Counted from the stretch's first letter, positions 21,345 through 49,854 are shown. The stretch: DNA of 58,303 bases from Candidatus Hermodarchaeota archaeon (GCA_016839365.1 JAEOUH010000074.1:1-58303); one strand, 5' to 3'. Notes: generated from the letters alone by a model not told the origin. A program made the numbers and translations.

Positions 21345-23120
21345 CTAATTCACTTCAATGGAGATAAATTCGTTGTTGATTTCGTTTTCTAGGTCCTTGA
21401 AATACTGCTCCATGACTTTTACGTCTTCGTGAGGTTGCACTTTCATCCGAGCAATTTTTCCTACTACTGGAAGCGCAATGATGCGCCGAAGTGGGATTCC
21501 CTCATCAATTGCTTGCCGCATACGTTGCCAAAACGCCATGATGATCTTCAACATCCAGTAGCTCTTTAATTCAGGGCAATACGTATCGATTGGATGTAGA
21601 GCTGATTGCATTAGGTAATCTTCCTTGACCATTCGGGCAGCCTCTAAAATCGCACGTTCTCGCTCTGGCAGGGCATCAGGGCCGACAAGTTGTACGATTT
21701 CACGGAGTTCCTTATCGCGTTGAAGGATGGATAGGGATTCTTCAGTAAGTTCGGGCCAATCAGAACCCATTTTCTTTTGGTACCAAGGAACTAACTCGTC
21801 CTTGTACAACGAATAGCTTTGAAGATAATTGATTGCAGGGAAGAATCGTCGTGAAGCCATGTCTTTGTCAAGTGCCCAAAACACTTTCGTAATCCGTAAG
21901 GTCGATTGTGTAACAGGTTCAGAAAAGTCGCCACCAGCTGGAGAAACCGCACCTGTAACTGTGACACTTCCCACTCGATAATCTGTTCCTAAAGTTTGAA
22001 CTCGTCCTGCTCTTTCGTAGAAGTCGGCGAGCCGACTCCCAAGGTACGCAGGATATCCTTCTTCACCGGGCATTTCCTCCAATCGTCCTGAAATCTCTCG
22101 GAGTGCTTCTGCCCATCGTGAGGTACTGTCTGCCATAAGAGCTACGTTATAACCTTGGTCACGGAAGTATTCGGCAAGTGTTATTCCGGTGTAAATAGAG
22201 GCTTCGCGTGCAGCAACGGGCATATTACTAGTATTAGCAACAAGCAATGTTCTTTCCATTAATGATTTGCCACTTTTGGGGTCCTTGAGTTTGGGGAAGT
22301 CTTCGAGGACTTCGGTCATTTCGTTACCTCTTTCACCGCAGCCAACATAGACGATAATTTCAGCATCAGCCCACTTCGCTAGTTGGTGAAGGGTAACGGT
22401 TTTTCCAGTCCCGAAACCTCCTGGAATTGCCCCGGTTCCCCCTTTAGCGACAGGAAAGAAGGTGTCAATCACACGCTGGCCCGTATAGAGGGGCACTTCC
22501 GTGCTGATTTTGGTTTTATATGGTCGACCAATTCGAACTGGCCAACGTTGAGTGAGTTTTAGGTCTTCTTTACCTGTAGCGGTTTGGACTTGAGCGATGA
22601 CCTCGCGAATTGTGTAATCTCCAGGGGGAACGATTTGTGTAATTTTTCCTTCGATTCCAGGCGGAACCAGAATTTTGTGAAGAAATACACTTGTTTCCTG
22701 AACGGTTCCCAGCACATCTCCTTGCGAGACAGAAGTACCTTTCTCCATTGTTGGTTGAAAATGCCATTTCTTGTCAACAGGTAAAGGGTCTGCCGTTATA
22801 CCACGAGTAATGAAGTCTCCTACTGCTTCTTTGATGCTCGGGAGAGGGCGTTGAATCCCATCAAAGATTGATCCAACTAGACCTGGGCCCAGTTCCACGT
22901 CAAGTGATGTCCCTGTGGCAACAGCTTTTTCACCAGGTTTCAATCCAGAGGTTTCTTCATAAACTTGAATATAGGCGCGATCGCCGACAATCCGGTTCAC
23001 TTCGCCAATAAGTTCTTCTGCTCCCACTCTGCAGACTTCAAACATAGTGACCCCAAAGAGTCCATCTGCTTCGATAAGAGGACCAGCAATTCGTTGTATT
23101 GTACCTATTCGCGTAGTCAT
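21345..23120 (-). CDS. atpA: A/V-type ATP synthase subunit A (no intein)
   Basis: GGFGTGKT, GCGERGNEM, ADSTSRWAEALRE, PGEEGYPAY. Confidence 0.97.
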   Translation of the reverse strand: MTTRIGTIQRIAGPLIEADGLFGVTMFEVCRVGAEELIGEVNRIVGDRAYIQVYEETSGLKPGEKAVATGTSLDVELGPGLVGSIFDGIQRPLPSIKEAVGDFITRGITADPLPVDKKWHFQPTMEKGTSVSQGDVLGTVQETSVFLHKILVPPGIEGKITQIVPPGDYTIREVIAQVQTATGKEDLKLTQRWPVRIGRPYKTKISTEVPLYTGQRVIDTFFPVAKGGTGAIPGGFGTGKTVTLHQLAKWADAEIIVYVGCGERGNEMTEVLEDFPKLKDPKSGKSLMERTLLVANTSNMPVAAREASIYTGITLAEYFRDQGYNVALMADSTSRWAEALREISGRLEEMPGEEGYPAYLGSRLADFYERAGRVQTLGTDYRVGSVTVTGAVSPAGGDFSEPVTQSTLRITKVFWALDKDMASRRFFPAINYLQSYSLYKDELVPWYQKKMGSDWPELTEESLSILQRDKELREIVQLVGPDALPERERAILEAARMVKEDYLMQSALHPIDTYCPELKSYWMLKIIMAFWQRMRQAIDEGIPLRRIIALPVVGKIARMKVQPHEDVKVMEQYFKDLENEINNEFISIEVN

Positions 23121-33757: not shown

Positions 33758-36700
33758 TTGGAATACCACGAATCCTACGTCAATGCACTTCGGGAAGAAA
33801 TTCAGCGAATTGCCAAAATTGCTGAAGCAGCCCGAAAAAAAGGACTTGACCCAACAACTGAAGTAGAGATTCGCCCCGCAGATGACGTTGCAGGCCGTGT
33901 TGAAGGCCTTGTTGGACCCCCTGGCGTTGCTGAAAGAATCCGGCAACTAAGTGAAACAGAACCTGCCCCCAATGTCGCCTTTGAAGTGGCTCGAGAAATA
34001 GTACAAAGAGCACAAGCCAGGGGTGGGGATTTAGAGAACGCAGCAGAACAAGCGATTCGAACAGCTTTAGCTATACTCACCGAAGGTATTACAGCTGGTC
34101 CCATTGAAGGCATCGCCACAGTAAAAATAAAAACAAACGTCGATGGGAGCCGTTACCTAGCAGTATATTTTGCAGGCCCAATTCGTGCCGCAGGGGGAAC
34201 AGAAGCTGCCCAAACAGTAATCGTTGCCGACGCAGTCCGCCAACAATTGGATTTAGACAACTACAAACCTTCAACCGAAAACGTGGAACGATACGTTGAA
34301 GAAGTCGATCTGTATAACCGGGTATCTCACCTTCAATATCCCTCCAAACCTGAAGAGGTTCGCTTGGCCGCACGAAATCTTCCTGTTGAAGTTACCGGTG
34401 AACCTACTGCAGAGGTTGAAGTCACGGGTTATCGTGACCTTCCTGGCGTCGAAACAAATCGGCTTCGAGGCGGCGCAATTCTTGTCTTGAATGACAGTAT
34501 CCTTGGAAAAGCCCACAAACTAGCCAATCTAGTTGCACAGCTCGATATGTCTGGTTGGGACTGGCTAGAAAACCTAACACCCCAAGAAACAGATGAAGAA
34601 AAAGCGGAAAAACGAATCCAACCCAAAGAAAAATACCTCGAAGACATCATCGCAGGACGTCCCGTGTTAGCCTACCCTTCACGAAAAGGTGGATTCCGCG
34701 TTCGTTATGGCCGATCAAGAAATACTGGCCTAGCCGCTCTTGGAGTTCACCCTGCCACCATGGTGCTTCTTGATAGTTTCGTTGCCTGTGGCACTCAATT
34801 AATCATTGAGCGACCAGGGAAGGGTTGTGTAGCAATGCCTGTGGACTCCATTCATGGTCCCATAGTCAAAACCTATAATGGAAGTATCCATCGGATTGAC
34901 ACAGTTGACGAAGCTAAAAAAATCAGTGACTCAGTTTCAAAGATTCTTTTCTTAGGGGATCTATTAATCGGATTTGGGGAATTCCGTGAAAATAACCACC
35001 TTCTGGTTCCTGCAGGATATTGCCCCGAGTGGTGGGCACAAGAGGTTTTGATGGGATTCATAGTGGCTTCTGACTCTGTTCGCCAAAACCTCTTTCAACA
35101 ACTGGATAAGCACACATTCCTTCAATTCATCACGGAACCTTTCAAAGCCACTCCTGACGCTTTAGAGGCCCTTACCATTTCGACAACTCTAAAAGTTCCT
35201 CTCCATCCTCGACATCTCTTCTTTTGGGAAGACCTCTCAATCCATCAACTGATGGAGTTTAAAGAATGGGTTAACGATCTTACTCCCACCCAAGAGAATG
35301 GACACGTTGTCACGTTGCAGGGAACCATAGATGAGGGAATCGAAGAGATCCTTGAGACGCTTGGCATTCCATGTAACTGCAAAGAAAACCAAATTTGGTT
35401 TCACGAAGCCGCCCCAATTCTACATGCCATGTTCATCGGACCCCATAAATGCAAATTTGCCTCTTCAGAGGCTGATGAGAGTGATGCCTTAGATTACTTA
35501 CAGAATAACTGGTCAATTCAGATACATCCCAAGGGGACCTTCTATATTGGTGCACGGGTCGGACGTCCTGAAAAAGCTAAACGACGACAAATGTCACCAC
35601 CTCCCCATGGAATATATCCCATCGGAAATGCTGGAGGTTCAATGAGAGATATTCGGAAAGCTGAGAAACAAAAGAAAGTGAAAGTCGAAGCCAATTACCG
35701 CCTTTGCCCACGATGTGGGACGATCACGTTCAAACGAATCTGTTCAAGTTGTCACATTGAAACTGAACAAATCCACTGGTGTCCAATCTGCAAAGCCGAT
35801 AGCAAAACCTCGAAATGTGCGCGATGTGGAGCTGAGGCAAACACATATGGGCCCATCGAATCACCACTCAAAAAGGAACTCCAACATACGCGTAATAAAT
35901 TAAGCCAAAAACTACCCAGCCGGATAAAAGGCGTTAAAGGGCTGATGAGCAAAAATAAGACCCCTGAAATCCTCGAAAAAGCAATATTCCGTGCAAAATA
36001 TGACCTATTCGTCTACAAAGATGGCACTATCAGATTCGATATGACTGACGCACCCCTTACCCATTTCAAACCCTGCGAAATCAACGCGTCACTCGACGCA
36101 CTTCATGCTCTTGGATATCATTTTGACAAAACTGGCGCACCACTTACTAACCCTAATCAAGTTATTGAACTTAAAATTCAAGACATCGTTGTTCCCTTTG
36201 ATTGCGCAAAATACCTTTTCCGGGTATCCAAGTTTGTTGACGATCTTCTCAGTCAAGTTTACGGCTTAGAACCCTTCTACAACTTCAAAACCCCCGAAGA
36301 CCTCAAAGGCCATCTAGTAGTCGGCCTCGCCCCCCACACCTCAGCCGGCGTCATCGGCCGCATCATCGGCTTCACACCCCTCCGCGTCTGCTACGCACAC
36401 CCATTCTGGCATGCCGCAAAACGACGCAACTGCCTCCACACTGATGAAGAGGTCATCATCTGGGATACTAATGATCAAAAACTTCTCAAACTCCCATTAG
36501 GTCAAATCGTTGAAGAACTCTTAGAAAAGAGAACACCAACCAAGGTTGTCGATGACTTTGGGACACTTGCCATCGATAATCCCTTTACTCACTGGCGAAC
36601 CATCAGTATCGACCCCACCACCCATCAACCCATCTACCAACCCATCAAACATTGGATCAAAGGCACCAGCAACCACTGGCTCACAATCACCACCCACTCT

Positions 36701-38812
36701 GGACGCACCATCACCATGACCCCTGACCACAACGCCATGATCTGGAACCCCACCACGCAAACCATCGAACGCACCAAAGCCCACCAACTCAAACCCGGCG
36801 ATCAGATCCCCATTCTCAATACGATTAACATTCCTGAAAGAAATCCTCCCCAAACCATCAACATCCTCCAAGAACTTACTGACAACCTACCAAACACTGA
36901 ACAATTCCAAACCTTCAAACACCAAACCAGACTCAGAAACGCCGAAACCTGGATGCGAACAACACTCCACCGATTCGCCCACTCTCTCAATCCATCAGAC
37001 CCACTCGGTCCACGAAAAATTAACAAAATACTCCAACACTACTTCGGACCCCAAATTCCTCGTCGACGCAAAACTCGCCTTTTCACTCAGGCGTGGTACA
37101 CTTCTATCCCCCTAACTCACCTCGAAATCCTCGAACACGAAGGCGTCTTCCAATGGAACGACATTCCTTCTACCGCGCAAATTGGCATGGCCCGCGATGA
37201 CCACACCATCACCCCCTACATCCCATTCAACTCAAATTTCGTAAGACTGCTTGGTTACTATGTCGCCGAAGGCTACATCCGCGATGAACCCAACTGCTAC
37301 CAAACCAACTTCAGCGTCCCCCACCCCGCCCTACGAACACACCTCCGAAACCTCATCCAAACAGTCCTCGGATCAGACCCCTACTACAAAAAAGATAACG
37401 ATCAACTCGTCCACACCGGACGCATCCACGCCTACCTCCTCGCTTATGCGTGGAAAATTGGGAAAAACGCACTAATAAAACGAGTTCCTACTTTTGTATT
37501 TAATTTGCCAAGAGAATTTCGACTTCACTTCCTTTCAGCTTTGATTGATGGAGCTGGTTCCATTATCCCTCGGTCATGCAGAACTACAATTTACACTGCA
37601 AACGCAAAACTCGCTAAAGACTATTCATTTCTTCTATCGACATTGGGTGTATTTGCAAGAATCCATCAGGCAAAAGGTGGTCGGTTTGGTCAAGCAGTTT
37701 TAAAACGATATGAGGAATTAGGAATCGAGCCCAAAGAGACAGAAGGCTTGTATCACGTAGATATCCCTGGAAGAGAAAATATTCCCTTTTTAGAAGATTT
37801 GTCTTTGATTAATGCTGAAAAAGACGAAAGAAGAAGAAAGATACTCGATAAGGGTTTTCCCAAAATTCAATTCTTGCCAAAAATCGGAGAACACGTTATT
37901 CTTGATCAAATAAAAGGAATAATTCCATCTCAAAACAATGATTCTTCATATTGTTTAGAGGTCTTGAAAGAAGAACATCAAAATAATCTCTATAACAATA
38001 TATCGACTTCTAATTGTTTAGTTTTTCAGTGTGATGGGGATGAGGATAGTGTGCTATTGGCGCTTGATTCGATGTTGAATTTTTCGCGGGCGTATTTGCC
38101 GACATCGCGTGGTGGGTCGATGGATACGCCGTTGGTGTTGAGTGTGTCGATTACGCCGAAGGAAATTGATGATGAGGCACACAATATTGATGGGAGTGGG
38201 ATTTACCCGTTGGAATTCTATGAAAAGACGAGGCAGTTTCTTGATCCCAAGGACGTTGAGGATATCTTTGATTTGGTGGCGCACCGGATTGTCGATCATC
38301 GAATTGATCCCACGGCCGAGTCATACGGGTTAGAGTTTTCTCACCCGACGGGAGACGTGAACTATGGACCTCGTGTAACCACTTATACGAAACTGAAGAC
38401 GATGGAGGAGAAAGTGAAACGGCAACTAGCCTTGGGCAGACGTATTGCTGCTGTAGATGTCCAAGATATGGCTCGGCGGCTCCTCGATTCGCATTTCCTT
38501 CCCGACATCTTTGGAAATATTCGTGCCTTCGCTTCTCAACAATTCCGCTGTACAAGTTGTAATGAGAAATACCGTCGTATCCCCCTAGCCGGGCGGTGTC
38601 CTGCATGCTCAGGAAAACTCATTCTAACTGTGACCAAAGCCGGAATCACCAAGTATGTAGATTTAGCTTCCCAAATTGTAGAGGACTATCAATTACCTTT
38701 ATACTATCAACAGCGACTCGAGATAGCTAAAGGGGTTATCAATTCCATCTTCCCATCTGAAGAGGTTGATCAACAAGCCACCTTGAAGCAGTTTTCAACG
38801 AAGAGTTCGTAA
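33758..38812 (+). CDS. polC: DNA polymerase D large subunit DP2, intein-containing
   Basis: GLDP, YFAGPIRAAGGT, RYGRSRNTG, GRPEKAK, zinc fingers, YAHPFWHAAKRRN...CDGDED, C-terminal CxxC motifs. Confidence 0.97.
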   Translation: MEYHESYVNALREEIQRIAKIAEAARKKGLDPTTEVEIRPADDVAGRVEGLVGPPGVAERIRQLSETEPAPNVAFEVAREIVQRAQARGGDLENAAEQAIRTALAILTEGITAGPIEGIATVKIKTNVDGSRYLAVYFAGPIRAAGGTEAAQTVIVADAVRQQLDLDNYKPSTENVERYVEEVDLYNRVSHLQYPSKPEEVRLAARNLPVEVTGEPTAEVEVTGYRDLPGVETNRLRGGAILVLNDSILGKAHKLANLVAQLDMSGWDWLENLTPQETDEEKAEKRIQPKEKYLEDIIAGRPVLAYPSRKGGFRVRYGRSRNTGLAALGVHPATMVLLDSFVACGTQLIIERPGKGCVAMPVDSIHGPIVKTYNGSIHRIDTVDEAKKISDSVSKILFLGDLLIGFGEFRENNHLLVPAGYCPEWWAQEVLMGFIVASDSVRQNLFQQLDKHTFLQFITEPFKATPDALEALTISTTLKVPLHPRHLFFWEDLSIHQLMEFKEWVNDLTPTQENGHVVTLQGTIDEGIEEILETLGIPCNCKENQIWFHEAAPILHAMFIGPHKCKFASSEADESDALDYLQNNWSIQIHPKGTFYIGARVGRPEKAKRRQMSPPPHGIYPIGNAGGSMRDIRKAEKQKKVKVEANYRLCPRCGTITFKRICSSCHIETEQIHWCPICKADSKTSKCARCGAEANTYGPIESPLKKELQHTRNKLSQKLPSRIKGVKGLMSKNKTPEILEKAIFRAKYDLFVYKDGTIRFDMTDAPLTHFKPCEINASLDALHALGYHFDKTGAPLTNPNQVIELKIQDIVVPFDCAKYLFRVSKFVDDLLSQVYGLEPFYNFKTPEDLKGHLVVGLAPHTSAGVIGRIIGFTPLRVCYAHPFWHAAKRRNCLHTDEEVIIWDTNDQKLLKLPLGQIVEELLEKRTPTKVVDDFGTLAIDNPFTHWRTISIDPTTHQPIYQPIKHWIKGTSNHWLTITTHSGRTITMTPDHNAMIWNPTTQTIERTKAHQLKPGDQIPILNTINIPERNPPQTINILQELTDNLPNTEQFQTFKHQTRLRNAETWMRTTLHRFAHSLNPSDPLGPRKINKILQHYFGPQIPRRRKTRLFTQAWYTSIPLTHLEILEHEGVFQWNDIPSTAQIGMARDDHTITPYIPFNSNFVRLLGYYVAEGYIRDEPNCYQTNFSVPHPALRTHLRNLIQTVLGSDPYYKKDNDQLVHTGRIHAYLLAYAWKIGKNALIKRVPTFVFNLPREFRLHFLSALIDGAGSIIPRSCRTTIYTANAKLAKDYSFLLSTLGVFARIHQAKGGRFGQAVLKRYEELGIEPKETEGLYHVDIPGRENIPFLEDLSLINAEKDERRRKILDKGFPKIQFLPKIGEHVILDQIKGIIPSQNNDSSYCLEVLKEEHQNNLYNNISTSNCLVFQCDGDEDSVLLALDSMLNFSRAYLPTSRGGSMDTPLVLSVSITPKEIDDEAHNIDGSGIYPLEFYEKTRQFLDPKDVEDIFDLVAHRIVDHRIDPTAESYGLEFSHPTGDVNYGPRVTTYTKLKTMEEKVKRQLALGRRIAAVDVQDMARRLLDSHFLPDIFGNIRAFASQQFRCTSCNEKYRRIPLAGRCPACSGKLILTVTKAGITKYVDLASQIVEDYQLPLYYQQRLEIAKGVINSIFPSEEVDQQATLKQFSTKSS
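36431..38029 (+). mobile_element. Intein (533 aa) with LAGLIDADG endonuclease domain in PolD DP2
   Basis: Inserted at KRRN|CDGDED; begins CLHTDEEV, block B TPDH, block C LLGYYVAEG, block E FLSALIDGAG, ends LVFQ followed by Cys. Confidence 0.93.
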
Positions 38813-43897: not shown

Positions 43898-44287
43898 CTA
43901 GCCTACCTGTGTCGAATCGCTTCTACGCGACTCCATCTCCATTAGTACCAATCGCACAGCTGACAACACTGCACCTACCTCTCCCTCATGCTCACGTGAT
44001 AAGAATAAATTCACTACGACAATCCCCCCTAACTTTTGTGCGGCTATATCCGCAATTGCCCGTGCCTCTGCTTGAAATCGCGTTCCCACTACACAGGATG
44101 TCGCTACTGGTGACACTTCGCTAAATGGGCTTGGAACTCCCACTGCAATTGTCCCGAACCGCTGCACCCCATCACTAACCAATACTAACGATCCATTTTC
44201 CAAGTTACCAATCGCTACTGCAATACGCAGTTCACCAACCTCTACAGACTCTTCAACAAAATCTATTGTCAACTTTCCTAACACCAT
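43898..44287 (-). CDS. Proteasome assembly chaperone PAC3/PAC4-like protein (tentative)
   Basis: LENGSLVLVS...RFGTIAVGVP...ARAIADIAAQKLGGIVVVNL pattern; size 129 aa. Confidence 0.5.
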   Translation of the reverse strand: MVLGKLTIDFVEESVEVGELRIAVAIGNLENGSLVLVSDGVQRFGTIAVGVPSPFSEVSPVATSCVVGTRFQAEARAIADIAAQKLGGIVVVNLFLSREHEGEVGAVLSAVRLVLMEMESRRSDSTQVG

Positions 44288-44308
44288 GTAACCTCTTTTC
44301 TTTACCCT

Positions 44309-44566
44309 TTATTTCACCCTATACGGCTCACCAAGAATCGAGTCAAAGACTTCTTTCAAAGACTCATCTACAAGCACTACGCGAACATGGGCCATCTTGT
44401 CTTCCTTAGGATCATAACTTCCTGACACTAATTCAATGATATCTTCACTGTCAAGCATCAAAATCGTCTTTTCCTCGTCCACTTCTTGATTCATACAAAA
44501 TCTTTCTCTTATTGCTTTCATAGCTTCGGGATATTTCGATGGGTGGATCTTGTAAAACAGCTTCAT
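44309..44566 (-). CDS. Hypothetical protein
   Basis: 85-aa ORF with an upstream GGAG, co-oriented with its downstream neighbours. Confidence 0.65.
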   Translation of the reverse strand: MKLFYKIHPSKYPEAMKAIRERFCMNQEVDEEKTILMLDSEDIIELVSGSYDPKEDKMAHVRVVLVDESLKEVFDSILGEPYRVK

Positions 44567-44652: not shown

Positions 44653-46842
44653 ATGACTTCCATGTCGCTATTTCGCCGTGGACTTTTTGGTCTCTCTCTT
44701 GTAGTCCTGATTGTCATGACCCTGTTTCCACTGATGAACGTATCACAACCGCTTGGGTCTACCATTCAGCCAACGATTATTGTTCCCCAACAACATACTT
44801 GGCAGACCTTTAACCGGAACATGAATGTGACTACCTTCGTGTCCCCTGATGGAAGCAGGGACGAGCTCTGGCATTTTCTAAATGCGGCCCAAGAGAGCAT
44901 ATATGTAGAGATTTATGGGATTAACCACCCTCACATTCTTGATCTGATTCATCAACTCAATGCCTCGAATCCTTCTTTAGACATGAAGTTTCTTCTTGGC
45001 TGGAATAGTCTAGGTTATACCAGCGAAAATCAGTACGTGGCTTACAATTTAACTCAAGCCGGTTTTGAAGTCAGATGGACCAGTAACACTGATTTCACCT
45101 ATGCACACCAAAAGTTTGTGATCATAGATAATGAAACCACCATAATTCATTCAGGCAATTGGGCGAAGACGAGCTTCCCCGAATTCCAAAAGAAGGCTAA
45201 TCGTGAATGGAGTATCGCAATGACCGATACCCAGATTACATCCTATTATCGAGCAGTCTTCGACGGGGACTGGAGAAACGGCACAGCATATGATATCTCC
45301 CATGGGACAGGATCACCTCTCACCTACAGCCCAGCTTCAAGTACCTACTCGCACCCTTTCGCCACTGCAGGAGAATTCAGTGGCAGTATGAACGTCACCC
45401 CGATTGTGAGTCCCGATACGAGTCTACAGGGCATTTTGTATTGCATTAATATCGCACAGGCAACATTAGACATCCAAATCCCCTACTTCACGAGCGTTGG
45501 CGATGGGGGTGCTGTTGATGACATTATTGATGCAATCCTAGCGGCGAAGGCACGGGGCGTGACCGTCCGTGTCATTACCGAGGAAGATCAAGACTGGGTC
45601 GAGATTGAACAGATTCTCATCGACAATGATATCTCCATCGTCTGGCACGACACTCGCTGGTTCACCGCTAACCACAACAAGGGCATCATTGTGGATGGCC
45701 GCATCGTGCTCGTAAGTAGCATCAATTACAGCGACAACAGCATCACCAACAACCGAGAAGCCGGTGTCATCATCGAGAACGAAGAGATCGCCCAATGGTA
45801 CCTGCAAGTCTATAACTTTGATTGGGGTATCGCTGATTGTGACGCAATGGAAGAAGTGAATGTCTACTGGAATCCCAGTATCCCCAAAAGCTCCAACACC
45901 ATTAACGTCACTGTGTATGGGCATATGCTATATCCCGATATTGACGAGGTTCAACTGGATGTTAAAATCGGTTCTGATCCGTGGTCAAACCAGACAATCA
46001 CATCGAACATCTATCCTTCAGCAGAAGGGCAGCTGGAGAACTTCTTCCGTGAAATTCCCGCCCAACCCGACGGCACTAACATCACGGTTGTGGGACGTAT
46101 CAGAAACGCAACTACCTGGCATATCGGAATACCTATGGTCATCCGGGTGCGAAACGCATTAGTTACGGTCAATCAACCACCATCAACTCCAACGTTAGCA
46201 GACCCCGGAACCGTCGACACTGACGGCTCCTTCACCGTATCCTGGAGCGCTGCAACGGATCCAGATGGCACCGTCAATCACTATCAACTCCAAATAAGTG
46301 ATGCCGATACGTTCACAACTGTAACCGATGAATGGAATACCAGTGGAACCAGCCAACTGGTTACCGTAACCAGTCAAGGCGTCTACTACTTCCGGGTCCG
46401 TGCTATCGACAACCAAGATCTCAACGGTGCTTGGAGCAACACCGTAGACATCACCGTTCTCCTTCCTCCCTCAGCCCCATCTTTGAATAATCCAGGCGAT
46501 ATTGATGTCGTTGGAACATTCACCGTCTCCTGGACAGCTAGCACCGACCCCGATGGCACTGTCACCCACTACCAATTCCAAATCAGCGACACAAGCGGGT
46601 TCGCCACCATCCTCTTCACCACTAACACCACTCAACTGAGCCAGGTGGTCACAGCCCCCAACGGCGTCTACTACTTCCGGGTCCGTGCCATCGACAACGA
46701 TGGCAACCCTAGCCCATGGAGCAATACTGAAAGCATCACCGTTGAAGTACCCTTCATACCTGGGTTCCCCATCGAAGCAATAATACTCAGCGTCGCCATC
46801 GTTCTGCTCACAACTCTGATGCTCCGACGCCGACGACAGTAA
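44653..46842 (+). CDS. Cell-surface phospholipase D-family protein with two FN3 domains and IPGF C-terminal sorting signal
   Basis: Signal peptide; two HKD motifs (HQKFVIID, HNKGIIVD); two FN3 repeats (YYFRVRA); IPGFP-TM-RRRR. Confidence 0.88.
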   Translation: MTSMSLFRRGLFGLSLVVLIVMTLFPLMNVSQPLGSTIQPTIIVPQQHTWQTFNRNMNVTTFVSPDGSRDELWHFLNAAQESIYVEIYGINHPHILDLIHQLNASNPSLDMKFLLGWNSLGYTSENQYVAYNLTQAGFEVRWTSNTDFTYAHQKFVIIDNETTIIHSGNWAKTSFPEFQKKANREWSIAMTDTQITSYYRAVFDGDWRNGTAYDISHGTGSPLTYSPASSTYSHPFATAGEFSGSMNVTPIVSPDTSLQGILYCINIAQATLDIQIPYFTSVGDGGAVDDIIDAILAAKARGVTVRVITEEDQDWVEIEQILIDNDISIVWHDTRWFTANHNKGIIVDGRIVLVSSINYSDNSITNNREAGVIIENEEIAQWYLQVYNFDWGIADCDAMEEVNVYWNPSIPKSSNTINVTVYGHMLYPDIDEVQLDVKIGSDPWSNQTITSNIYPSAEGQLENFFREIPAQPDGTNITVVGRIRNATTWHIGIPMVIRVRNALVTVNQPPSTPTLADPGTVDTDGSFTVSWSAATDPDGTVNHYQLQISDADTFTTVTDEWNTSGTSQLVTVTSQGVYYFRVRAIDNQDLNGAWSNTVDITVLLPPSAPSLNNPGDIDVVGTFTVSWTASTDPDGTVTHYQFQISDTSGFATILFTTNTTQLSQVVTAPNGVYYFRVRAIDNDGNPSPWSNTESITVEVPFIPGFPIEAIILSVAIVLLTTLMLRRRRQ
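46171..46740 (+). repeat. Tandem FN3-coding duplication (285-bp period)
   Basis: GGCGTCTACTACTTCCGGGTCCGTGCYATCGACAAC at 46378 and 46663 (35/36 identical). Confidence 0.8.
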
Positions 46843-46870
46843 AGATAAAGAATCTAAGACCGAAAACGCT

Positions 46871-47785
46871 TCAGCACTCAACCCTTTGCTTCAGAATCTT
46901 CCATTCGCGCTCAATCCCCCGCTCAAACTCCTCCACCCGCGCGGGGTTCTTAATCAACGTACGAAATCGACCCTGCGGCTTCAAATAATCCATCAACGGC
47001 TTCCGCTTCACCTTCCCTTCAGCAATCTGCTTACTTCGGCCCAGAAACCGCCACTCCTCCCCTTCTTTCTCCCACATAATCCACACGCCTGTGTCCACTG
47101 CGAGTTTACCCATTTCCACTGTATCCCATGTCAAATATCGCCAACCCGTCGGACACATCGTATGAATCTCAATATATCGCGTCCCCACAAATTCCTTCGC
47201 TTTCGAATACGTCTCATACACTAACCGTGGATACGCCGCCGAAATCGACGCTGTATACGGAATACCATGCTCCGCCATAATTCGCGCAAACGGCTTACGA
47301 TGCTGCATTTTCCCCGTAGGTGTTGTTGTCGAAAACGACCCATACGGCGTAGCCCCAGAACGTTGCATCCCGGTATTGCCGTATGCTTCATTATTGTAGC
47401 AGGTGTAGATGAAGTTGGTTTGGCGTTCGGCAGCACCGCTGAGGGCTTGGATGCCGATGTCATAGGTTCCACCGTCACCTGCCCAGGCCATGAGATTGAT
47501 TTCTTTATCTTTACCCATATATTTGAGTCCGGCAGCGATTCCAGAGGCGGCTGCGCCTGCGGTCATAAAGGCTGTATTTAGAACTGGTACGCAAAGGCCA
47601 TTTTTGGGATAGAGTCCTTGGATAACAGACATGCAGCAGGCAGGAACTGTAAGAATGGTATTATCACCCAAAGCTTTGAGTGCATGGCGGATGGCGATTG
47701 TAGCACCACATCCTGCGCAAGCGGCGTGACCTAGTTCGATGTATTCTTCTCTGGGTAAATCTTTGATAGCTACCATCTTCTTCAC
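46871..47785 (-). CDS. porB: 2-oxoacid:ferredoxin oxidoreductase beta subunit
   Basis: ACAGCG, GDGGTYDIG, NNEAYGNTG, CPTGW. Confidence 0.92.
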   Translation of the reverse strand: MKKMVAIKDLPREEYIELGHAACAGCGATIAIRHALKALGDNTILTVPACCMSVIQGLYPKNGLCVPVLNTAFMTAGAAASGIAAGLKYMGKDKEINLMAWAGDGGTYDIGIQALSGAAERQTNFIYTCYNNEAYGNTGMQRSGATPYGSFSTTTPTGKMQHRKPFARIMAEHGIPYTASISAAYPRLVYETYSKAKEFVGTRYIEIHTMCPTGWRYLTWDTVEMGKLAVDTGVWIMWEKEGEEWRFLGRSKQIAEGKVKRKPLMDYLKPQGRFRTLIKNPARVEEFERGIEREWKILKQRVEC

Positions 47786-48960
47786 CTTTTTAATCCGTAG
47801 AATATGTCTGGTTTCGCTTCTCCTTTGTCTGCTACATCAAATCCGATTTTGAACATTTTCTTAATATCTGTGTGTCTTACATCTCGACCGCCGAGTCCGG
47901 CGATGACTCCTTGGACAGGTATGGTTTGACCCCCTCGGTAGAGTGCTGATCGGATTTCGGTTGCGGCTCCTCCAAGGTGCCCATATGAGAGGCTACGATC
48001 GATGACTACAAAGGCTTTGGCTTTCTTTGCTAGGGCTTGAATTTGTTCGGCTGGGAATGGTCGGAAAACACGGAGTCGTGCAGATCCTGCTGCTACGCCT
48101 TCGTTTCGCAGTTCGTCAACAGCAAGTTGTGCTTCTTCTCCCATTGTTCCTAATGCAATGAGGATAACCTCTGCATCATCACAATGATATTCATTAATGA
48201 ATTGACCATGATCACGTCCGAAATGTTTTTTGAAATCTGCTTCAACTTTCGGGATTAGTTTTCGTGCCGCTTCAAACCCTTCGTGGATTGCGTAACTAAG
48301 CTCGTAATAATATTCGGGCCCTGCAATGTTTCCAGTTGCCATCGGATCCTTGGGATCCAATTTCCAGTGACCTGCTTCATAGGAAGGGAGAAAGTCAGTA
48401 ATTTCGTCATGTTCATACACTTCAATCGAAGTGAATGTATGGCTGAGAATGTAGGCATCTAGAGCTACCATTCCGGGAAGTAGGACCTTGGGATCTTCAC
48501 ATAATCGAAAGAGCATCAGGACAGTATCATAAACTTCCTGATTATTTGATGCATACAATTGAATCCAGCCAGTATCACGTTGTGACATTGTATCTGTATG
48601 GTCAGACCAGATATTCCAGGGGGGCCCAAGAGAACGATTGACAACAGGCATTACGATAGGTAAGCGTGAACGACCTGCCCAATGAAGCATCTCGTGCATC
48701 AGTGCTAAGCCATGAGATGAAGTGGCGGTGAATGTCCGGAGTCCTAAGGCCGAAGCCCCAATACATGCAGCCATTGCACTGTGTTCTGACTCAACACGAA
48801 CATATTCAGATTTCAGCTCTCCGTTCTCTACGAATTCTGCGATTTTTTCTACAATCGTCGTTTGTGGGGTTATCGGATATGCCGCAATAACTGCGGGAAT
48901 TGCTGTTCGTGCAGCCCAAGATGCAGAATGATTCCCTGTCACAGATATAATTTTCGACAT
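47782..48960 (-). CDS. porA: 2-oxoacid:ferredoxin oxidoreductase alpha subunit
   Basis: AYPITPQT, VESEHSAM, TATSSHGL, FRPFP, GLGGRD. Confidence 0.92.
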   Translation of the reverse strand: MSKIISVTGNHSASWAARTAIPAVIAAYPITPQTTIVEKIAEFVENGELKSEYVRVESEHSAMAACIGASALGLRTFTATSSHGLALMHEMLHWAGRSRLPIVMPVVNRSLGPPWNIWSDHTDTMSQRDTGWIQLYASNNQEVYDTVLMLFRLCEDPKVLLPGMVALDAYILSHTFTSIEVYEHDEITDFLPSYEAGHWKLDPKDPMATGNIAGPEYYYELSYAIHEGFEAARKLIPKVEADFKKHFGRDHGQFINEYHCDDAEVILIALGTMGEEAQLAVDELRNEGVAAGSARLRVFRPFPAEQIQALAKKAKAFVVIDRSLSYGHLGGAATEIRSALYRGGQTIPVQGVIAGLGGRDVRHTDIKKMFKIGFDVADKGEAKPDIFYGLKR

Positions 48961-48970
48961 TTTTTTCACT

Positions 48971-49267
48971 TCACTCAATATCTGCTTCAGTTTCACGTAC
49001 TCGTGTAATTGCTTTCACGGGACAAGTTGTTTCACAAATCATACACCCTTTACAGTATTCCAAGTTAATGACGGGTTTGTTATTCTTATCCATTGTAATG
49101 GCTGCATCCGGACAAAACAACCAACACGTCTGACATCCAGTGCACTTGTCATTGTCTACAATAGGACGAAATATTCGCCAGTCACCAGTACGTCCCATTG
49201 CCCCAGGCTCAGGGTATGTAATACAAGTAACACGTCTTTCTGGTGGATCGCGTTTAAGTGGTGTCAT
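48971..49267 (-). CDS. porD: 2-oxoacid:ferredoxin oxidoreductase delta subunit (2x[4Fe-4S])
   Basis: TGDWR..RP, CTGCQTCWLFCP, YCKGCMICETTCP. Confidence 0.92.
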   Translation of the reverse strand: MTPLKRDPPERRVTCITYPEPGAMGRTGDWRIFRPIVDNDKCTGCQTCWLFCPDAAITMDKNNKPVINLEYCKGCMICETTCPVKAITRVRETEADIE

Positions 49268-49854
49268 AGTGAATACCCCATATTGAGTTCATTATACGCG
49301 CGTTGGGCTGCTTCAACATTGGTTTCAATTACTTTGTCAGGAAGCCCCTCTAAGCCCTTTCGAATCGCCTTTTTCACACTTTCAATCGAAGCGATATTGG
49401 TGGCTCTCACAACCGCACCTAACATGATGGTGTTAACTACAGCGATTCCAGCAACTAAAATCCCCTCATCTAAAGCGATTTTTGTGGCATCGACAGTAGC
49501 TATTTTTGCCTTGACTGGTAATTTGATTTCTCCTGGTAATCGTGGTGTGTTGACAACTAAAAATATCCCATCTTTGAGACCCGCTTTAACTGTAGGGTTC
49601 TCGAGTAACGTTTCATCTAAAACGACGATAGCCTCAGGTTCATAGATGTAACTATGGATACGAATTGCCTCATCAGCAACTCGCGTAAAAGCCATGACGG
49701 GAGCTCCTCTTCGTTCGGCGCCATAATGTGCAAAGGCTTGGAAGTGTTTGCCTTCTAAACGTGTGGCATCACCGAGGATTTTTGCTCCAGTCACGGCGCC
49801 TTGACCACCGCGACCATGAAAGCGTATCTCAAAGAGATCCAATGTTAAATCCAC
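49264..49854 (-). CDS. porG: 2-oxoacid:ferredoxin oxidoreductase gamma subunit
   Basis: EIRFHGRGGQGAVT, YGAERRGAPV, NTIMLGA. Confidence 0.92.
   Translation of the reverse strand: MDLTLDLFEIRFHGRGGQGAVTGAKILGDATRLEGKHFQAFAHYGAERRGAPVMAFTRVADEAIRIHSYIYEPEAIVVLDETLLENPTVKAGLKDGIFLVVNTPRLPGEIKLPVKAKIATVDATKIALDEGILVAGIAVVNTIMLGAVVRATNIASIESVKKAIRKGLEGLPDKVIETNVEAAQRAYNELNMGYSL

Follow-up and report, generated by a model that had tools for sequence, protein, structure and literature searches.

Why should the third codon positions of a conserved metabolic gene change from C- and A-ending to G- and T-ending at a single codon? The question is raised by porB, the gene of the beta subunit of 2-oxoacid/pyruvate:ferredoxin oxidoreductase, in a Candidatus Hermodarchaeota archaeon (GCA_016839365.1 JAEOUH010000074.1:1-58303). 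The window analysed here is an entire 58-kb contig (C54) of the 93-contig, 2.2-Mb metagenome bin of this organism. A sequence-only reading of the same DNA had noticed the switch and had called it a ghost homing site, repeatedly cut or invaded by an intein or homing endonuclease that is absent from this allele. The codon-skew flip in porB is confirmed by the present analysis. It suggests, without proving it, a lasting DNA-repair footprint at an empty intein site.

The flip in porB and its two arms

On the coding strand, the 30 codons of which T138 (ACC, 47372-47374) is the last have 20 C, 5 A, 5 T and no G as third letters, and the following 30 codons have 15 G, 9 T, 6 A and no C. The count of the sequence-only reading (25 of 30 codons ending in C/A with no G, then 24 of 30 ending in G/T with no C) was thereby reproduced exactly. 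With 60 codons counted on each side, third-position C and G number 29 and 3 before the switch and 0 and 31 after it (Fisher P = 7e-15). Changepoint statistics, proposed earlier as a check, agree on codon 138 as the last before the switch whether keto/amino or G-C is measured, with a statistic of 7.8 against a maximum of 4.8 over 5000 permutations (P <= 2e-4); the likelihood profile is flat across about +-5 codons and the location is therefore given as codon 138 +-5. Codon positions 1 and 2 of porB are unshifted at the flip (0.00 vs -0.03), so that only silent positions are affected.

The features on which the argument rests are the following.

46871..47785, minus strand: porB, 2-oxoacid/pyruvate:ferredoxin oxidoreductase beta subunit, a 304-aa, intein-free open reading frame (ORF) with a match to Pfam TPP_enzyme_C (1e-16)
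47369..47377, minus strand: flip point and empty intein insertion site, comprising N137 (47375-47377), T138 (47372-47374) and G139 (47369-47371)
45550..47371, no strand assigned: left arm, plus-strand third positions C(/A)-rich and G-poor, strongest close to the flip; it covers the porB 3' half, a 28-bp spacer and ~1.3 kb of the PLD-like gene
47372..48270, no strand assigned: right arm, plus-strand third positions G/T-rich and C-poor; it covers the porB 5' half and the final ~490 bp of porA
47782..48996, minus strand: porA, alpha subunit (Pfam POR_N and PFOR_II), its 3' end within the right arm
44653..46842, plus strand: PLD-like gene (Pfam two PLDc_2 and an Ig-like domain), convergent with porB, its 3' part in the left arm
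47334..47392, no strand assigned: imperfect inverted repeat flanking the site, with 15-nt arms that are 80% complementary and a 29-nt spacer

The bias had been said to reach the porB stop and to continue far into the neighbouring PLD gene, and this was borne out, since it enters that gene by ~1.3 kb, to ~45550. In 30-codon bins of this left arm the plus strand has 14-22 C and 0-5 G, and the GC skew goes down to -0.48. An opposite arm, absent from the sequence-only reading, was found on the other side, where the plus strand is G/T-rich and nearly C-free from 47372 to ~48270. Its first bin holds 19 G and no C, and later bins hold 1-3 C of 30 until ~48270, with the exception of the bin at 47741-47824 (C 6 of 30). 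Both arms peak at the flip and fade across ~0.9-1.8 kb, and gene boundaries are disregarded. On either side the G/T-rich strand is the one running 5'->3' away from the flip. The 4-fold sites of this outward-running strand carry G 47, A 14, T 12 and C 5; G makes up 60% of them, compared with 17% in the genome background, and C 6%, compared with 27%. At its two-fold sites T exceeds C by 21 to 3 and G exceeds A by 29 to 12. Translational codon selection was considered and rejected, since the arms enter a gene on the opposite strand and the two halves of porB are oppositely biased. The inverted repeat at 47334..47392 is within chance by rough estimate (~0.3 chance 8-bp inverted repeats per 350 bp).

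The switch had also to be examined as a possible contig join. Contigs from three other studies span 47369-47372 with zero differences, and a fourth, strain-level contig across the flip differs at third positions only, so that the join named earlier as grounds for dismissal was not found. In the contigs of four runs, which are blind to rare alleles, neither an insertion nor a joint was seen at 47371. A loose contig end at 47370 was traced to an unrelated oxidoreductase with the same motif.

The porB gene is collinear with 17 same-family orthologues from two genera (82-93% amino acid identity), and the flip is present at the same motif in 17/17 of them; its strength is variable, and the downstream arm extends into neighbouring DNA in all. 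It was also found in 5/5 family alleles from JGI metagenome contigs. No flip was observed in 12 other Asgard orthologues or in 28 unrelated genes with the same peptide motif. The 4-fold sites are saturated between the source genome and most family members (identity 0.27-0.34), where an inherited bias would have decayed, and the bias must therefore be renewed in each lineage. With its two closest relatives the source genome has a 4-fold identity of 0.65-0.68 across porA, but of 0.36-0.46 across the strong arm, which points to a locally raised substitution rate in the arm. Among the three closest genomes, polarised substitutions mostly run counter to the skew (upstream, 31 C>T and 9 T>C), but little can be read from them, as parsimony is unreliable at such divergence and base composition. 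The mark in porB is anchored at a point, directed outward, strand-specific, restricted to silent sites, family-specific and long-lived.

Occupied and empty intein sites

A homologue search had been suggested for insertions at YxN|TG or at QR|S. At the former, an intein was found exactly at N137|T138 in 38 of the 120 long PorB homologues listed, with the Thr as the +1 residue that had been guessed. An alignment of 16 sequences (...YxN | C-intein-HN | TGxQRSG) places the junction at N137|T138 of the present protein, within one codon of the flip; T138 is invariant in it and belongs to the Cys, Ser or Thr residues required after an insertion point. Neither the 16 sequences of this alignment nor the junction table of the 120 listed homologues showed an intein at QR|S; the other insertion points in the table are V128|C129, in seven or eight proteins, and GDGG|, in one. 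The site part of the ghost homing site therefore stands, N137|T138 being occupied in homologues; the repeated cutting or invasion stays conjectural, as neither a PorB intein nor a close relative of its endonuclease was found in 19 family genomes. In an unrelated organism, the ENA contig k141_113730 (L068:4431-6965) carries an intein-bearing porB directly followed by an acetyl-CoA synthetase-like gene with a LAGLIDADG intein.

Inteins that are resident in the source genome offer a comparison. Four were found: one in RNR, one in PolD DP2 and two in MCM, each of these at a contig end (C12 and C15) and both mapping to one MCM gene in relatives. For all four, the left flank is C/A-rich and the right flank G/T-rich on the plus strand, regardless of the gene strand; the intein sequence itself is AT-rich and neutral in RNR and MCM. 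The DP2 intein lies in the same window:

36262..38420, plus strand: PolD DP2 gene with intein, for comparison (Pfam; third-position track)

Its C-rich block has a sharp left edge at 36262, ~340 bp ahead of the point where the intein is predicted to start, and takes in the first ~800 bp of the intein; the endonuclease region (37432-37970) alone is neutral, and the plus strand is G/T-rich thereafter. The centre of symmetry in DP2 is thus the endonuclease domain and not the intein junctions. Among the relatives, 15 intein-bearing genes representing 11 distinct sites all have a flip strength D >= 0, with a mean D of 0.41 (P = 2e-4).

The porB flip was also placed in its genomic context. About 60 flips at D >= 0.85 were found in the 2.2 Mb, and that of porB is among the seven sharpest, at rank ~7 (D = 1.2; standard deviation of D 0.24). 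Sharp flips with the porB polarity outnumber the reverse by 9 to 1 at D >= 1.1 and by 7 to 0 at D >= 1.2, which favours a directional process. The strongest of the genome, with D = 1.5, lies in the H+-PPase gene (C45:81256) immediately before the DSYGPIADNAGG motif. By eye, no common DNA motif was recognised at the top 16 flips, and there is no GGCC at the porB flip. Three pairs of paralogues flip at homologous positions beside the same conserved motif:

C27:4065 and C38:10039: HdrA
C68:1363 and C14:26358: thiolase-like
C54:47369 and C87:22524: oxidoreductase beta, the C87 member flipping at the homologous motif with D = 0.85

One further flip, in RadA, lies 11 codons from the major RadA intein site A342|A343. 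In this gene (C17:34474-35628), ~25 G/T-ending codons (332-355) break a long C-ending run and are centred on A342|A343; the geometry of this block is unlike that of the porB flip, and it looks like a short conversion patch.

Outward synthesis and its rivals

The polarity of the two arms fits the nascent strand of repair synthesis starting from a point, from which outward synthesis is inferred. DNA synthesis would be primed repeatedly at this point, by gap filling, by strand-invasion synthesis after a break or by any other local priming, and would run outward. If the outward strand were made by a polymerase that over-inserts G (and T), the new strand would carry the bias. The porB flip would then be the fixed point of an outward, strand-asymmetric mutation process that is long-acting and specific to this archaeal family, and for the outward-synthesis part of this proposal we estimate a probability of roughly 0.45. 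The initiating lesion may have been a cut by a homing-type endonuclease, past or present, as is assumed because the flip point is the canonical PorB intein homing site. We advance the involvement of such an enzyme, now or once, tentatively and regard it as doubtful. Inside a homing element both strands would be newly made, which would explain the neutrality of the RNR and MCM inteins. Resected 3' tails would, if deaminated, give the opposite polarity, and their deamination was rejected as the source of the skew for this reason. In the most general form of the proposal, breaks at homing sites of this Hermodarchaeia family would be repaired by strongly G-biased synthesis that leaves heritable mirror 'skew scars', even where, as in porB, no element survives; this form, too, is offered only as a possibility on the unlikely side. 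The causal story as a whole is plausible and unproven.

Several results weigh against this proposal. An intein in porB was not found in 41 genomes (the source genome, 18 of the same family and 22 other Asgard genomes). When 19 family genomes, 72-91% complete, were searched with a PorB intein and endonuclease as query, only matches of 23-40% identity were obtained, all of them inside other inteins; rare alleles would escape detection in such genomes. The family motif followed by a Cys codon had no match in the JGI contigs, a search of low power with only 5 family alleles present there. A search of 5.8 billion proteins likewise gave no intein-bearing family porB allele, the best match having 58-59% identity across the N-terminal extein. 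The flanks of PorB inteins in four unrelated lineages are unskewed (D -0.20 to 0.23), and the skew is therefore a property of the host family and not of inteins. Ten sites that are occupied in relatives and empty in the source genome have a mean D of 0.11, which is not significant, and just two of them, RNR site-a and a site on C19, rise above the rest; an empty homing site alone thus carries no mark. The strongest flip of all, in H+-PPase, is without an intein in 300 Asgard genomes, and none was found for the thiolase flip among 120 long homologues listed. The base spectrum adds a difficulty of its own. The gain at 4-fold sites is nearly all G (60% vs 17% background) while T drops, so that a model of transitions only is unfit and G:T mispairs alone do not explain the near-pure gain of G. 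Finally, at |K| >= 0.6, the genome has 120 windows that are C/A-rich and 33 that are G/T-rich on the coding strand (3.6x), which indicates that gene orientation or selection shapes the pattern in part.

Candidates for inteins at two of these genes had been considered and rejected. The split matches to H+-PPase in the 300 Asgard genomes reflect a variable loop of full-length genes, and the long homologues of the thiolase-like gene are DUF35 fusions. The A-type ATPase catalytic subunit gene (AtpA, 21345-23120, minus strand) is intein-free here, while two relatives of the same genus, G010 and G007, carry an intein of ~537 aa; its empty site at ~22392-22403 shows no flip (D = -0.10).

A serious rival is a recombination anchor at an ultra-conserved active-site motif, with no endonuclease. 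Invading diverged DNA, from other strains or from paralogues, would start or end at such a motif, primed synthesis would leave the mirror, and inteins would coincide with it merely since active-site motifs host inteins too. Strong flips do abut the H+-PPase motif already mentioned, TFPTLDCS in the two HdrA paralogues and the GGH..AH loop of RadA, and others lie just after the P-loop of a GTPase and by an ABC signature motif, the WCGPC of a thioredoxin and the DPCxxC of a hydrogenase, all of which we take to be active-site motifs. The three paralogue pairs with homologous flips and the several flips without a detected intein point the same way, as do GRINS, which tie intense keto/amino skews to gene conversion of paralogous segments (PMC8256042). 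Nevertheless, protein trees of the two porB halves were not significantly incongruent in approximately unbiased (AU) tests (p-AU 0.3-0.5; low power), and conversion between porB paralogues that are just 38% identical in protein is unlikely. The arms of resident inteins begin at the intein junctions with the RNR and MCM inteins neutral, for which break and homing is the simpler account, and the same sites are skewed if occupied and unskewed if empty. On balance the motif anchor, together with the coincidental placing of inteins that it implies, appears rather unlikely to us.

An asymmetry linked to transcription, or selection on RNA, is less probable still. Sense strands would be C/A-rich through a transcription-coupled mutation bias or through selection for unstructured mRNA, and the flip would mark where the porAB transcript meets antisense read-through from the PLD-like gene, or an internal bidirectional initiation. 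The convergence of these two genes and the 120 to 33 excess of C/A-rich windows agree with this, and 16 of the 61 intragenic flips lie in the final tenth of their gene, and the silent-site skew drifts to -0.10 towards the 3' ends of genes. Against it, the sense strand of porB is itself rich in G and T over the 3' half of the gene, where 60 codons include no C. The G+T-rich non-template strand that would be expected downstream of a transcription start holds for this half and is reversed in the 5' half. In all examined intein-bearing genes the sense strand is C/A-richer upstream and G/T-richer downstream of the intein, except for one orthologue (D = 0.00) and one tie. The flip occurs at the same codon in 18 species, and the AT-rich codons N131 and N132 vary in their third letter, so that there is no conserved promoter-like box at the flip. 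We therefore consider an origin in transcription improbable. As for an artefact or a mosaic, in the form of a chimeric assembly or of a recent import of the porB 3' half from a strongly skewed relative, the source is a bin of 93 contigs and several of its skew patches are close to contig ends. An assembly join or chimera was nevertheless rejected on the independent contigs that cross the site without a difference and on the relatives that have the same flip (17/17, with 5 metagenome alleles), and the 9-to-1 asymmetry of polarity would not be expected from a mosaic of foreign pieces. No contig is skewed throughout, and a search of the bin for contaminant contigs strongly skewed over their whole length found none. 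This explanation is very improbable.

Related skews and what a repair footprint would mean

The closest published pattern to the porB flip is that of GRINS, described in 2021 as intense, correlated G>C and T>A skews that are abrupt within genes, strongest at third positions and linked to gene conversion (PMC8256042). They are defined as duplicated segments of >500 bp and >80% identity in bacterial polyketide synthase clusters; their mechanism is unknown, and an error-prone polymerase has been proposed (PMC8256042). With a GC skew to -0.48, porB lies within the skew definition of GRINS (mean absolute skew > 0.15, concentrated at third positions). In contrast to GRINS, the porB arms are single-copy, the only other copy (C87) being 38% identical in protein, and so they are not duplicated segments. 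They are also archaeal and form a two-armed mirror of fixed polarity that is anchored on one codon, and the positions that determine amino acids are left unchanged.

Homing of LAGLIDADG inteins reportedly proceeds with co-conversion of the extein flanks, for example by PI-SceI at VMA1 and by the polB inteins of halophiles. The porB anchor is the exact insertion point of an intein with a +1 Thr, the resident inteins of the source genome show the same flanks, and the arm lengths of ~1-2 kb resemble what we take to be the lengths of co-conversion tracts. The differences are that the family genomes searched yielded neither a cognate intein nor its endonuclease and that the flanks of foreign PorB inteins are unskewed. 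In a literature search, no paper connecting inteins or homing to strand skew was found.

At replication origins the plus strand is C/A-rich on the left and G/T-rich on the right, in the same keto and amino classes of bases, and this polarity is shared by the porB flip. The porB arms are, however, ~1-2 kb long (ends at ~45550 and ~48270) and not replichores, and their skew does not persist as that of an origin does. Further differences are the ~60 flips in 2.2 Mb, the position of this one among conserved codons of a gene of metabolism, and an amplitude far larger than that at origins (0 C in 60 codons). Human genes have a transcription-associated excess of G+T on the non-template strand over their first 1-2 kb, and GC skew is found at R-loop-prone promoters. 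These patterns and the porB flip have in common a mirror about a point, with arms of ~1 kb and identical polarity, but no promoter is recognised at the porB flip, where possible TATA-like codons are unconserved, and on the porB sense strand the sign is opposite in the upstream half of the gene.

If the flip is a repair footprint, the starting points of breaks or recombination could be read from sequence alone in an Asgard lineage that is uncultured, and a repair polymerase of unusual bias would be indicated in relatives of the eukaryotic ancestor. GRINS-like skews, the origin of which is unknown, would also gain a concrete anchor and a fixed polarity, and a homing site would be seen to keep its mark, and perhaps to remain a target, throughout a family that no longer has the element. 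Were the skew scars real in the general sense, silent-site composition alone could map ghost homing sites, and perhaps recombination hotspots generally, from a single genome. If one of the rivals holds instead, the data still define a very strong, lineage-specific local mutation bias. Analyses of codon usage, selection and horizontal transfer in genomes of this family must account for this local bias.

A few minor observations concern the surroundings of these skews. A large number of strong skew patches, such as C27:1-1100, C75:1-700, C87:301-1200 and C65:201-1200, are located ~1 kb or less from a contig end and may coincide with assembly breakpoints, for example from strain variation. In the window, the por operon comprises the genes of the gamma, delta, alpha and beta subunits on the minus strand (49854..46871). 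Beyond the PLD-like gene, two small ORFs of 129 and 85 aa without a Pfam match occupy 43898-44566 on the minus strand. This patch has a GC skew of -0.41 to -0.48 with an AT skew near zero, and its plus-strand third positions are C/T-rich, which is a different asymmetry from the keto/amino type of porB.

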